Assembly: GCF_050920415.1 (NCBI RefSeq)
Contig: NZ_CP169309.1
Source of the DNA: Escherichia coli
GTDB taxonomy: Bacteria; Pseudomonadota; Gammaproteobacteria; Enterobacterales; Enterobacteriaceae
DNA length: 64,000 nucleotides
Strand: one strand, 5' to 3'
Below the pieces are notes generated by a model. The model did not search any database, was not told the origin of the DNA, and saw only the letters and a list, made by a program, of their open reading frames with translations. The position numbers and the translations under genes are program-made. Within the stretch, counting starts at the first letter, position 1. Each line of letters begins with the position of its first letter. This document shows, one piece after another, positions 30,758 through 37,471 of this stretch.

Positions 30758-32272
30758 ATGAGTTTTTCCGTTGATGTGCTGGCGAATATCGCCATCGAAT
30801 TGCAGCGTGGGATTGGTCATCAGGACCGTTTTCAGCGCCTGATCACCACGCTGCGTCAGGTGCTAGAGTGCGATGCGTCTGCGTTGCTACGTTACGACTC
30901 GCGGCAGTTTATTCCGCTTGCCATCGACGGGCTGGCGAAGGATGTTCTCGGTAGACGCTTTGCGCTGGAAGGGCATCCACGGCTGGAAGCGATTGCCCGC
31001 GCCGGGGACGTGGTGCGCTTTCCCGCAGACAGCGAATTGCCCGATCCCTATGACGGTTTGATTCCAGGGCAGGAGAGTCTGAAGGTTCACGCCTGTGTTG
31101 GTCTGCCCTTATTTGCCGGGCAAAACCTGATCGGCGCACTGACGCTCGATGGGATGCAGCCCGATCAGTTCGATGTTTTCAGCGACGAAGAGTTACGGCT
31201 GATTGCTGCGCTGGCGGCGGGAGCGTTAAGCAATGCGTTGCTGATTGAACAACTGGAAAGCCAGAATATGCTGCCAGGCGATGCCACGCCGTTTGAAGCG
31301 GTGAAACAGACGCAGATGATCGGCCTGTCGCCAGGCATGACGCAATTGAAAAAACAGATTGAGATTGTGGCGGCGTCCGATCTCAACGTCCTAATCAGTG
31401 GTGAGACGGGAACGGGTAAGGAATTGGTGGCGAAAGCGATTCATGAAGCCTCGCCGCGGGCGGTGAATCCGTTGGTCTATCTCAACTGTGCCGCACTGCC
31501 GGAAAGTGTGGCGGAAAGTGAGTTGTTCGGGCACGTGAAAGGGGCGTTTACTGGCGCTATCAGTAACCGCAGCGGGAAGTTTGAAATGGCGGATAACGGC
31601 ACGCTGTTTCTGGATGAGATCGGCGAGTTGTCGTTGGCATTGCAGGCCAAGCTGCTGAGGGTGTTGCAGTATGGCGATATTCAGCGCGTTGGCGATGACC
31701 GCAGTTTGCGGGTCGATGTGCGCGTGCTGGCGGCGACTAACCGCGACTTGCGCGAAGAGGTGCTGGCAGGGCGATTTCGTGCTGACTTGTTTCATCGCCT
31801 GAGTGTGTTTCCGCTTTTGGTGCCGCCGCTGCGTGAGCGGGGTGATGACGTCATTCTTCTGGCGGGGTATTTCTGTGAGCAGTGTCGTTTGCGGCTGGGG
31901 CTCTCCCGCGTGGTATTAAGTGCCGGGGCGCGGAATTTATTGCAACACTATAGTTTTCCGGGGAACGTGCGCGAACTGGAACATGCTATTCATCGGGCGG
32001 TGGTGCTGGCGAGAGCCACCCGCAGCGGCGATGAAGTGATTCTTGAAGCGCAACATTTTGCTTTTCCTGAGGTGACGTTGCCGCCGCCAGAAGCGGCGGC
32101 GGTGCCCGTTGTTAAGCAAAACCTGCGTGAAGCGACAGAAGCGTTCCAGCGTGAAACTATTCGCCAGGCGCTGGCACAAAATCATCACAACTGGGCTGCC
32201 AGCGCACGGATGCTGGAAACCGACGTCGCCAACCTGCATCGGCTGGCGAAACGTCTGGGGCTGAAGGATTAA
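30758..32272 (+). CDS. norR: NO-responsive sigma54-dependent transcriptional activator NorR
   Basis: 504 aa from [12 protein letters not shown]; GAF domain, AAA+ GETGTGKE and GAFTGA motifs, C-terminal HTH. Confidence 0.93.
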
Positions 32273-33234
32273 ATAATCCCGGCCTGATAGAAATCCTGCA
32301 GGTTAATTGCGCCGGTAAGTTTGCCGTTTTCATCCACCACTGGTGCGGCGGTGATTTTGCGCTTCATCAGGATCTCTTTGGCGTCGATGGCGCGACTTTG
32401 CGATAGCAACGTCGTGCCGCCTGCCGTCATCGCTTCATTAACTGGCGTGGTGAGTGCACCGCCGCCAACCAGCCAGCGACGTAAATCCCCGTCGGTAAAG
32501 ACGCCTTTCACCAGTCGTTGATCGTCGCACACTGCTACCAGTCCCAGACCGGTGCGACTGAGTTCCAGCATCGCATCCATCACGCTGGCGGTTAACGCCA
32601 CCTGCGGGATGGCGTCATCACGGCGCATCAGATGATGCACTTTGTTCAGCAAGCGAGCGCCCAGTGCCCCAGCTGGGTGGGAGCGGGCAAAATCTTCTTC
32701 ATTAAATCCGCGCGCCTGCATGACCGCCATCGCCAGCGCGTCGCCCATCATCAGGGTATTGACGGTGCTGGAGGTCGGTGCAAGATGCATCGGGCAGGCT
32801 TCGCGTTCTACAGAGATATCCAGCACCGCTTTCGCCGCCAGGCCCAGCGGTGATGTCGGTTTACCGGTCATCGCCAGCAGCGCGATAGATTTGTCTTCCA
32901 GACGCGGAATAATCAGATCCAGTTCCTTTGCGCCACCGGAGTAAGAGATAAACAGCATCACATCGCGGCTTTCAATCATCCCCAGATCGCCGTGCAGTGC
33001 CTCTGCCGGATGGACAAAAAAAGCCGGTGTGCCGGTACTGGCAAGCGTTGCGGCGATTTTCTTACCAATGTGGCCCGATTTGCCAATTCCCGAAACCACC
33101 ACTTTGCCTTCGCAGTGCAGGATGATATTGGCGGCGCGAACAAAATCATCGCCCAGACGTTCTGGTAAACGGCTTGCTTCCTGCAACTCCAGCATTAACG
33201 TCTGACGTCCCGCGTTCAGTAGTGCTTCACTCAT
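32269..33234 (-). CDS. gutQ: D-arabinose 5-phosphate isomerase (SIS + CBS domains)
   Basis: 321-aa ORF; SIS motif VSGIGKSG; 4-bp overlap with norR end. Confidence 0.93.
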
Positions 33235-34000
33235 TGCTCTCTCCGGTTATGATCACGTCGATCCCTTTTTCTTCCAGCGCCTGACGAAACGCTGGATCGA
33301 TACCTGCGTCGGTAATCAGTTTATCGACGCTTTCAAGACTACAAACCACGTTGGGGCTTTTACGGCCAAACTTCGATGAGTCAGCCATCAAAATAACTTC
33401 GCGCGCGGCATTACACATCGCTTTACTGACGGTATAGACCTCGTTGAAGGTGGTTACGCCTGCATTGAGATCGATGCCATCGGTGCCCATAAACAATTTA
33501 TCGAAGCTGAAATGTTCGAAGGCGTTCTCTGCCAGCTGCCCGTGAAATGAGGCCGATTTTTTACGAAATGTGCCGCCTGGCATCAGGATAGTTTGTTCGT
33601 TATCCAGTTCGGATAGCGCATTGACGATGTGCAGGCTGTTGGTCATTACTGTGATGTTATTAAAGCGCGAGAGCAGGGGGACCATCTGCAAAACGGTGCT
33701 GCCAGCATCAAGAATGATCGAATCGCCATCATGGATAAAACTAACGGCAGCTTCTGCAATCAGCTCTTTCTTGTGGGTGTTGATGAGTGTTTTATGATCG
33801 ATAGGCGGATCGGATTCCTCTTTATTCAACACCACTCCGCCATAAGTACGAATGACGGTTCCTGCATGTTCCAGAATGACCAGATCTTTGCGAATGGTTG
33901 TGCCTGTGGTGTCAAAGTATTGCGCCAATTCTTCAACCGAGCATTTACCCTGCTTTTGCAGATACTCCAGAATGGCGGCCTGACGCTGACGAGGTTTCAT
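33227..34000 (-). CDS. srlR: DeoR-family glucitol operon repressor
   Basis: 257-aa ORF; N-terminal HTH, DeoR C-terminal domain. Confidence 0.93.
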
Positions 34001-34066
34001 GGGCGTGATTACCTGATTTAGGTTTCAAAATGATAACTTCGCAAGCAAGTAACATTCACAACGAAA

Positions 34067-34426
34067 TTATCCACGTTTCAGTTTAAGCGCCAATGATAGA
34101 GCATTCTGTGATAGTGGATCATGGGGAAAGATCACATCGGGCTGTAAATCAGCAGAATGCATGCCCGTAATTGCGGGAATTTTTTGCGGTCGGGCGAAGA
34201 CAGTCAGTCCTTTCATAAACAAGGTGTCGACGATGCGCTGCTGATCGTCCAGGGCGATGGCGACCACGACCCGCGGTTTAAAGCGCCCGCTGGAACGGCC
34301 CACGCCAACCCGCCCTTGCTGGCATAGTGTGTCGAAGGCACGGTTAAAACGAGAAATTTGCCAGCCGCCTAAGGCCAGTTGCGCACACCAGGCGATAACG
34401 GCGACGGTGATGAGTGCGGATACCAT
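34067..34426 (-). CDS. gutM: Glucitol operon activator GutM
   Basis: 119-aa ORF with N-terminal hydrophobic segment. Confidence 0.9.
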   Translation of the reverse strand: MVSALITVAVIAWCAQLALGGWQISRFNRAFDTLCQQGRVGVGRSSGRFKPRVVVAIALDDQQRIVDTLFMKGLTVFARPQKIPAITGMHSADLQPDVIFPHDPLSQNALSLALKLKRG

Positions 34427-34457
34427 AACTTTTCCTTAATGTAGTGGCGGAAGTCCT

Positions 34458-34487
34458 GTAGGCCTGATAAGCGTAGCGCATCAGGCA
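34458..34487. repeat. REP element
   Basis: GTAGGCCTGATAAGCGTAGCGCATCAGGCA. Confidence 0.75.
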
Positions 34488-34500
34488 TTCTATTAGTCTC

Positions 34501-34525
34501 GCGGAGATCCTTAACGGATCTCCGC
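34501..34525 (-). other. Perfect 10-bp-stem hairpin immediately downstream of srlD, no U-tract (intra-operon stabiliser or attenuator-like)
   Basis: GCGGAGATCC-ttaac-GGATCTCCGC. Confidence 0.6.
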
Positions 34526-34531
34526 TGTTGA

Positions 34532-35686
<1,155 letters not shown>

Positions 35687-35696
35687 GTTTCAGCCT

Positions 35697-37234
<1,538 letters not shown>

Positions 37235-37274
37235 TTATTGTTTTATTACCAAATGGCAACCTAATCTAATCAGA

Positions 37275-37338
37275 TTGAAAGATTTAAAAGTGTTATTTTG
37301 ATCTCAAAATGAAAGATAAATATTTTAATTTGAAAGTT
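37275..37338. promoter_or_regulatory. srl promoter region: three direct TGAAAG-containing repeats plus a CRP-like site (TGTTA-N6-TCTCA, 37291-37306)
   Basis: TTGAAAGAT (37275-37283), ATGAAAGAT (37309-37317), TTGAAAGTT (37330-37338); candidate DeoR-family (SrlR) direct-repeat operators. Confidence 0.4.
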
Positions 37339-37471
37339 TGTATAAAAGGATAGTGAGGCGGATGAGTTGAGTTATGTAAAGTCTGTATCGGGCAGTGACT
37401 ACCGCTTCCTTGTGCAGGGCGGGATGCTTTACCATACTTGCCCCTGGTTGAATTTGTTAAATGGACCCCTC

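Follow-up and report, generated by a model that had tools for sequence, protein, structure and literature searches.

What happens to a transcript of the glucitol/sorbitol operon of Escherichia coli when it passes from srlD, the last structural gene, into gutM, the first regulatory gene? All genes of this operon were located on the minus strand of the window, which is the whole 64-kb stretch of DNA that was analyzed, and all of them matched NCBIfam equivalogs far over the cutoffs (Table 1). The 105-nt spacer between srlD and gutM carries two stem-loop structures, a perfect hairpin and a REP. The reading preferred here, which is considered moderately probable, is that this spacer acts as punctuation inside the operon. 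It would define and protect the 3' end of the srlAEBD mRNA and allow a fraction of the transcripts to reach gutM-srlR-gutQ. This would be an ordinary case of the well-known operon punctuation without a new mechanism, albeit with a mild twist: a private hairpin and a REP stand in tandem, and across the family, different hairpins have refilled this slot. Against this reading, it has to be considered that REPs, as mobile elements, could settle in any spacer that is long enough.

In the sense of the mRNA, the region reads UGA, UCAACA, GCGGAGAUCC-GUUAA-GGAUCUCCGC, GAGACUAAUAGAAU, GCCUGAUGCGCUACGCUUAUCAGGCCUAC, AGGACUUCCGCCACUACAUUAAGGAAAAGUU, and AUG, which is the srlD stop codon, 6 nt, the hairpin, a 14-nt linker, the REP, 31 nt, and the start codon of gutM. 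An earlier note on this DNA had placed a hairpin and a REP between the two genes; coordinates and sequences proved to be exact, including both arms and the loop of the perfect 10-bp hairpin, and the NCBIfam matches confirmed the flanking genes. The region is 100% identical to that of E. coli strain MFDS1022581 and about 97% identical to that of K-12. Both structures were present in the MFE and in the centroid fold of the whole spacer. In 34415-34545 (minus strand), the MFE structure paired the last srlD codons GGUGAUGUUCUG with the post-REP segment CAGGACUUCCGCC, and this predicted helix would enclose both hairpins in a three-way junction. Almost no sequence variation exists there, and the 3' strand of this helix would be missing from the trimmed RNA. 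Open reading frames overlapping the spacer, 34344-34481 on the minus and 34257-34439 on the plus strand, were treated as mechanical.

Table 1. Positions of the genes of the glucitol/sorbitol operon and of the elements in the srlD-gutM spacer within the 64-kb window.
Feature	Position	Strand	Basis	Remark
srlA	36653-37216	minus	NCBIfam equivalog	
srlE	35697-36656	minus	NCBIfam equivalog	
srlB	35315-35686	minus	NCBIfam equivalog	
srlD, sorbitol-6-phosphate dehydrogenase	34532-35311	minus	NCBIfam NF009050, 503 bits	last structural gene
srlD stop codon UGA	34534-34532	minus		
srlD-gutM spacer	34427-34531	minus		105 nt
Perfect hairpin	34501-34525	minus	sequence and fold	10-bp stem, 5-nt loop; window letters GCGGAGATCC (34501-34510), loop TTAAC (34511-34515), GGATCTCCGC (34516-34525)
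GATC (Dam) sites	34506-34509, 34517-34520, 34530-34533			three in 28 bp (34506-34533); two in the hairpin arms, the third overlapping the srlD stop
−35-like TTAAGG	34514-34509		relaxed promoter scan	hairpin loop/3' arm
−10-like TAGAAT	34492-34487		relaxed promoter scan	linker
AU-rich single-stranded linker	34487-34500	minus	unpaired in MFE and centroid folds	14 nt
Single REP with CTAC tail	34458-34486	minus	exact sequence match	window letters GTAGGCCTGATAAGCGTAGCGCATCAGGC(A), 34458-34486(7)
Equivalent of the K-12 3' end	34457	minus	Term-seq (PMC7815308), mapped via alignment	...CAUCAGGC(C/A)UACA-3'
C-rich, G-poor tail	34427-34456	minus	C/G ratio	GGACUUCCGCCACUACAUU, then gutM Shine-Dalgarno AAGGA
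gutM, glucitol operon activator	34067-34426	minus	NCBIfam NF007592, 228 bits	first regulatory gene 3' of the spacer
srlR	33227-34000	minus	NCBIfam equivalog	
gutQ	32269-33234	minus	NCBIfam equivalog	

The hairpin, which starts 6 nt past the UGA of srlD, folded with −20.8 kcal/mol and a z value of −7.2, and none of 200 shuffled sequences was as good. Perfect hairpins with stems of at least 10 bp and loops of 3 to 8 nt were counted in the whole 64-kb window: 3 were observed, compared to 0.37 expected from dinucleotide shuffles. The same shuffle count yields a chance of about 6 × 10−4 for such a perfect hairpin in a given 105-nt spacer. For the exact hairpin pattern, 0 matches were expected, and the window contained one match when up to 3 mismatches were allowed. 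This hairpin is more than a chance product. The remaining two of the three perfect hairpins were found at 1784-1809 (CTCATGCTTC/GAAGCATGAG, 6-nt loop) and 2539-2567 (ATTCCCGATAG/CTATCGGGAAT, 7-nt A-rich loop).

A search for copies of the hairpin by word-11 blastn (E ≤ 10) in 5,426 complete E. coli genomes located it in 5,408 of them (99.7%), each time as a single copy and without exception at the 3' end of srlD. Its flanks, UCAACA and GAGACU, lack the GTAG/CTAC tetranucleotide, so that neither copy number nor flank is that of a REP. The hairpin is a private, locus-specific structure. It cannot be counted among the REPs, and hairpin and REP together do not make a BIME, as the spacer has one REP only, which is paired with a single-copy hairpin of non-REP type. 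A decayed inverted REP, which would make the pair a degenerate BIME, was considered and rejected. The naRNA4 covariance model aligned the hairpin to the inverted Y-REP, weakly, with about 45% identity in the cmscan alignment, and the hairpin is single-copy and without GTAG.

The second structure of the spacer showed the opposite distribution. The REP had been reported before at 34458-34487, and its sequence, its position, and its many genomic copies were confirmed: a 36-mer covering it occurred at least at 40 places per genome in 5,425 of the 5,426 genomes. It is a stem-loop-forming imperfect palindrome with dispersed copies, is extragenic at this site, and ends with ...GGCCTAC. Given at least 40 copies per genome and the CTAC end, this is a bona fide REP, which presumably matches the short Z2-type consensus. 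It begins 45 nt past the srlD stop and folded with −13.2 kcal/mol (z = −3.3) into a stem of 8 + 2 bp with bulges, while the K-12 variant was more stable with −17.9 kcal/mol. REP annotation in RefSeq NC_000913.3 was uninformative in this respect, as REP325 itself is unlisted in the copy used. REP positions differ among strains (Harris et al. 2026 preprint).

Known RNA families did not account for the spacer. The Rfam search of it returned sub-threshold matches only. A match to the NiCo-AnGGAG riboswitch (RF03164; 34494-34570, minus strand) reached 25.4 bits compared to a gathering score of 64.5; it was driven by the hairpin and the trailing GAGAC, had broken helices, one of them with 5 non-pairs, extended into the srlD coding sequence, and was judged to be spurious. 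The weak similarity to naRNA4, which is derived from REP325, with 23.4 bits compared to 59.5 reflects a similarity to REPs, and a match to snoR2 was noise.

Evaluation of whether the hairpin acts as RNA or as DNA needs to consider its natural variants. An Escherichia alignment comprised eleven distinct spacers from E. coli phylogroups, E. whittamii, and unnamed clades. The loop varied freely in this alignment (GUUAA, AUUAA, UUUAA, and UUAAA), and the 20 stem positions showed three substitutions only: the last C of the 3' arm to U in K-12 and O157, the last C of the 5' arm to U in the U15A type, and an A to G in the 3' arm of Escherichia sp. E1V33. On the mRNA strand, each of these created a G.U wobble, and 100% of the alignment cells thus remained paired; on the opposite strand, each would be an A.C mismatch. 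In a crude neutral model, the probability of three wobble-compatible substitutions by chance is estimated as roughly 0.25 cubed, about 0.02. Two-sided covariation was not found among the eleven spacers because the divergence within Escherichia is too low. The variation in the stem points to selection on the RNA structure of the sense transcript, and this is modest evidence.

Since these substitutions pair on the mRNA strand only, they also argue against a palindrome that acts as DNA, either as an operator for a protein or as a Dam/SeqA-sensitive site. Such a role might be suggested by the perfect 10-bp inverted repeat and by three GATC sites in 28 bp. The second GATC, however, results automatically from the palindrome; a GATC is lost in the Escherichia sp. 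E1V33 variant; and the C-to-T and A-to-G variants break the symmetry of the DNA but leave the pairing of the RNA intact. An operator shared with the srlA promoter was rejected, as the half-site GGAGATCC is absent near 37217-37366 and thus not repeated there. A function at the DNA level is therefore regarded as extremely unlikely.

To understand the effect of the spacer on the transcript, these structures can be combined with published data from K-12. The earlier note had proposed that both elements could set a differential stability between the mRNA of the structural genes and that of the regulators, to be seen as a drop in RNA-seq coverage and by mapping of 3' ends, and had named uniform coverage across the spacer as the opposite outcome. 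Term-seq in LB at an OD of 0.4 identified one curated 3' end in the spacer, at MG1655 position 2828590(+), with an average read count of 4,666 (Adams et al. 2021; PMC7815308, supplementary files 1 and 3). By its coordinates and the printed flanking sequence, this end (...CAUCAGGCAUACA-3') is 3 to 5 nt past the REP stem and precedes the AUG of gutM by 31 nt. DirectRNA-seq of the same study, determined in 800-nt windows with uninduced K-12 cells in LB, gave coverage values without bicyclomycin (BCM) of 585 on the upstream and 197 on the downstream side, and with BCM of 309 and 199 (PMC7815308). Coverage was therefore not uniform; it fell about 3-fold across the spacer, and less so with BCM. The ratio of downstream to upstream coverage was 0.34 without and 0.64 with BCM, with the provision that the 800-nt windows overlap a Rho region inside srlR. 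In addition, a northern band of "the size of srlAEBD" was observed, pcnB affects gutM and srlR differentially, and REP fragments are principal substrates for the addition of poly(A) (Maes et al. 2017, PMC5389530). TERMITe contains no srl entry. The connection of the REP and the hairpin with the K-12 3' end and the coverage drop is correlative.

These data agree with a differential level of the structural and the regulatory part of the message as proposed, although a part of the drop should come from Rho-dependent termination and not from decay alone. The Rho score of the 2828590 end was 1.91, which was flagged "significant Rho termination region: Yes," yet is under the guide value of 2.0 used by the authors (PMC7815308). 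A stronger Rho region exists inside srlR at 2829346 (697/76 without and 386/156 with BCM, score of 3.7; PMC7815308). Since the 800-nt windows overlap this region, termination near the REP is inseparable from termination in srlR. Concerning the individual elements, the 3' end just past the REP supports a role of this structure, but no end was listed at the perfect hairpin in the K-12 data from LB (PMC7815308). The mapped end follows the REP and not the hairpin, so that a contribution of the hairpin itself is putative. The proposal was essentially right in the outcome and incomplete in the mechanism, in that Rho probably contributes and the end is located at the REP.

The K-12 data also bear on the question if the hairpin might be an intrinsic, Rho-independent terminator. 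Like such terminators, it is a GC-rich hairpin, here with a 10-bp stem, positioned directly behind the stop codon of a gene, and Hafnia and Ewingella possess terminator-like hairpins with U-rich tails at the equivalent position. It differs from them because a U tract is missing, as had been noticed before: its tail GAGACUAAU contains 2 U in 9 nt, and the tail of the REP, ACAGGACUU, is no U tract either. Neither structure has a U tract, which means that there should be no intrinsic termination at the spacer. A consensus scan of the spacer found no terminator-like site, no Term-seq 3' end was listed at the hairpin, and the neighboring end at the REP had an intrinsic-terminator score of 1.51, below the threshold of 3 (PMC7815308). 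The probability of an intrinsic terminator is close to nil.

The sequence downstream of the REP is consistent with an involvement of Rho. Directly 3' of the REP, in 34460-34401, the C/G ratio was 1.64, which is the local maximum around the spacer, and it reached 1.6 to 2.0 in the 3' half of gutM. Judged from this composition, the C-rich, G-poor tail at the end of the spacer is a candidate start of a Rho-loading region. Dar & Sorek (2018) have described Rho-dependent transcripts that end directly 3' of stable U-less stem-loops, where PNPase and RNase II are blocked; the rut sites are located just 3' of these stem-loops. REP325 within yjdMN functions as a partially Rho-dependent attenuator and as a stabilizer of the upstream message; on the other hand, effects of REPs depend on their context, and longer half-lives are not a general consequence of terminal REPs (Harris et al. 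2026 preprint). The C-rich tail leads into the Shine-Dalgarno sequence of gutM, and a pairing of the latter with the 3' arm of the hairpin (UCUCC) was considered. This pairing would comprise 5 bp at best, is lost in the present strain and in K-12 (Shine-Dalgarno sequence AAGGAA), and was rejected.

In the preferred reading, RNA polymerase coming from the srlA promoter would read through the spacer. Rho might load on the C-rich, poorly translated RNA 3' of the REP and terminate transcription within gutM or srlR. Subsequently, PNPase and RNase II would trim the RNA in 3'-to-5' direction and come to a halt shortly before the REP stem, a few nucleotides on its 3' side, leaving a stable srlAEBD message, so that the REP may be the cause of the observed end. 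The unique hairpin, being the more stable one and located 14 nt upstream of the REP, could be a second roadblock, a backup that may shield the srlD coding sequence when poly(A) polymerase (PAP I) and the degradosome have breached the REP. The net effect would be a high dosage of the enzyme and the transporter but a low dosage of the activator and the repressor, all from a single promoter. This module would explain abundant sorbitol transporter and dehydrogenase compared to scarce GutM and SrlR. An RNase III site was considered as well, since YmdB overexpression reduces srlABDE according to the literature. For this enzyme, however, a stem of 10 bp is short, and the source paper gives no RNase III site.

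The proximity of the hairpin to the srlD stop codon allows another explanation, by which the structure acts on translation. Ribosomes terminating at the srlD UGA would have to unwind the stem and might stall, followed by cleavage of the mRNA and rescue by tmRNA, and less SrlD would result. Translation is down-regulated by REPs whose distance from a stop codon is below 16 nt, according to the account of Liang, Rudd & Deutscher (2015) given in PMC12306157, and a stem of about −20 kcal/mol starting 6 nt past the UGA is inside the 15-nt limit of that account. This effect was demonstrated for REPs, however, and the srlD-proximal hairpin is a non-REP structure, while the true REP is 45 nt away and thus not within 15 nt of the stop. 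Of the 81 species compared, 71 had their first stable hairpin beginning at most 15 nt past the srlD stop, with a median of 6 nt, but this proximity is partly forced where the spacers are compact. Moreover, lowering the last and most needed enzyme would be of no obvious benefit. On this balance, an effect via translation is quite unlikely.

A third possibility is that the spacer mainly provides an internal constitutive promoter for gutM-srlR-gutQ, and that hairpin and REP are incidental or parts of a leader. Genomic SELEX with the RpoD holoenzyme yielded a peak in the srlD>gutM spacer, which was assigned to "gutM-srlRQ," but no promoter sequence was given for it (Shimada et al. 2014). A filter used for file 3 of Adams et al. 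kept post-stop 3' ends only when a TSS was present at most 200 nt upstream, and this implies a TSS within the last ~127 nt of srlD or within the spacer. A relaxed promoter scan found TTAAGG-16-TAGAAT on the minus strand with 8 of 12 matches to the consensus, and TAGAAT or TAAAAT was retained in every aligned Escherichia sequence. This motif and the SELEX peak hint at a weak internal gutM promoter. On the other side, the putative −35 site fits in 3 of 6 positions only, the standard promoter scan returned nothing in the spacer, and nothing was listed close to this locus in the Cappable-seq supplements. Some species have spacers of 41 to 46 nt, too short for a promoter, and nevertheless kept a hairpin, and a promoter cannot account for stem substitutions that preserve the pairing in the RNA only. 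An internal promoter as the main function is therefore unlikely; it is compatible with punctuation of the message, and both may coexist.

How far the arrangement is kept outside Escherichia was followed by a GutM profile search of GTDB species representatives, which gave 80 loci, with 81 srlD-gutM spacers analyzed. The spacers were between 41 and 612 nt long and could not be aligned between genera. A simple hairpin of −11.4 kcal/mol or lower was nevertheless present in 81 of 81 (median, −23.7 kcal/mol) and was more stable than in shuffles of its own spacer in 70 of 74 cases; the distance of the first stable hairpin from the srlD stop has been given above. By a rough motif test, 58 of the 81 loci had REP-like motifs and 23 had none. 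A single REP was found in Salmonella and some Citrobacter, and REP pairs in Citrobacter, Klebsiella, Enterobacter, and Leclercia. Private GC hairpins were present in Trabulsiella, Pluralibacter, and some Kosakonia; CCCUCUCCC/GGGAGAGGG hairpins in several Enterobacter, in Lelliottia, and in Silvania; and hairpins with U-rich tails in Hafnia and Ewingella, as mentioned. Amplified REP arrays occurred in Enterobacter sp. JUb54, Kosakonia cowanii, and Phytobacter ursingii. The tandemly amplified REP-pair units in these three comprised 315, 612, and 550 nt, respectively, and the spacer of Serratia oryzae contained a 409-nt array of another repeat.

Structure and position but not the sequence are kept in the srlD-gutM spacer. 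A hairpin that is always present with a sequence that is never shared illustrates a function that was kept through structure and position. The slot filled by the Escherichia hairpin is the one that private or terminator-like hairpins fill in other genera, and the Escherichia REP looks like an addition to this slot. The comparison also bears on the view that the spacer has no selected function at all, with the REP as neutral insertion of a mobile repeat and the hairpin as a relic or chance palindrome. The REP content of the spacer turned over completely between genera, with arrays in some; REP sites vary by strain (Harris et al. 2026 preprint); and one strain, XD35, tolerates an IS5-like insertion in the hairpin. 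This view is very unlikely nevertheless: the z value of −7.2 with 0 chance matches expected, the retention of the hairpin by 99.7% of the E. coli genomes and by further Escherichia species, with stem changes that are all wobble-compatible, the stable hairpins in all 81 species, about 23 of them without REP motifs, and the coincidence of the K-12 3' end and the coverage drop with the elements do not fit to it. In E. coli XD35 (NZ_CP089142.1; 151-327 of the extracted locus L089), the IS5-like ISEc68 is inserted in the 3' arm of the hairpin, directly after ...GTTAAGGA. It parts srlD from the REP and gutM, which makes this strain a natural disruption mutant.

A more far-reaching version of the punctuation model may be proposed, although with considerable doubt: the spacer might be a selected "valve" slot, in which Enterobacteriaceae keep a stable hairpin within about 6 nt of the srlD stop while the filler is repeatedly replaced. 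As fillers, terminator-like hairpins, unique GC hairpins, single REPs, BIME-like pairs of REPs, and amplified arrays were seen. If this were true, Escherichia with its private hairpin and a recruited REP would represent an exaptation of a REP caught in the act. Together with the putative promoter TTAAGG-16-TAGAAT in the linker, one 105-nt module would then end the structural message, restart low-level transcription of GutM and SrlR, and set the ratio of activator, repressor, and enzyme.

A comparison with known systems helps to classify the spacer. REPs as stabilizers within the malE-malF operon were reportedly described by Newbury et al. in 1987, and BIME-associated attenuation is said to have been shown by Espeli et al. 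in 2001. The srl spacer shares with these intra-operon stabilizers and attenuators, including REP325 of yjdMN, a REP between codirectional genes, an expression that is higher on the upstream side, a 3' end at the REP, and a read-through that seems to be partly sensitive to inhibition of Rho. It differs in that a single REP is present and not a pair or an array, that a stronger non-REP hairpin in single copy stands before this REP, and that the genes 3' of the REP encode the activator and the repressor of the operon itself. With the class of Dar & Sorek (2018), it has in common stable U-less stem-loops, an exact steady-state 3' end a few nucleotides downstream, which published Term-seq places directly after the REP, more C than G directly behind, and an apparent increase of read-through by BCM. 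Here, the difference is the location inside and not at the end of an operon, the two hairpins in tandem, and a Rho dependence that is modest (score of 1.91) and not spatially resolved. The locus may serve as a natural test bed, since stabilization by a REP, Rho-dependent attenuation, and a structure proximal to a stop codon come together in one spacer.

The next spacer of the operon, between gutM and srlR, had other features. It comprises 66 nt (34001-34093 on the minus strand when the gutM 3' end is included), and its sequence, TTTCGTTGTGAA...TTGCGAAnTTATCATTTCGAAAC, is conserved across genera. A promoter-like TTGGCG-16-GATAAT precedes it, and from these features the spacer is probably the promoter/operator of srlR. 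It is AT-rich and weakly structured, which is the opposite pattern to that of the srlD-gutM spacer.
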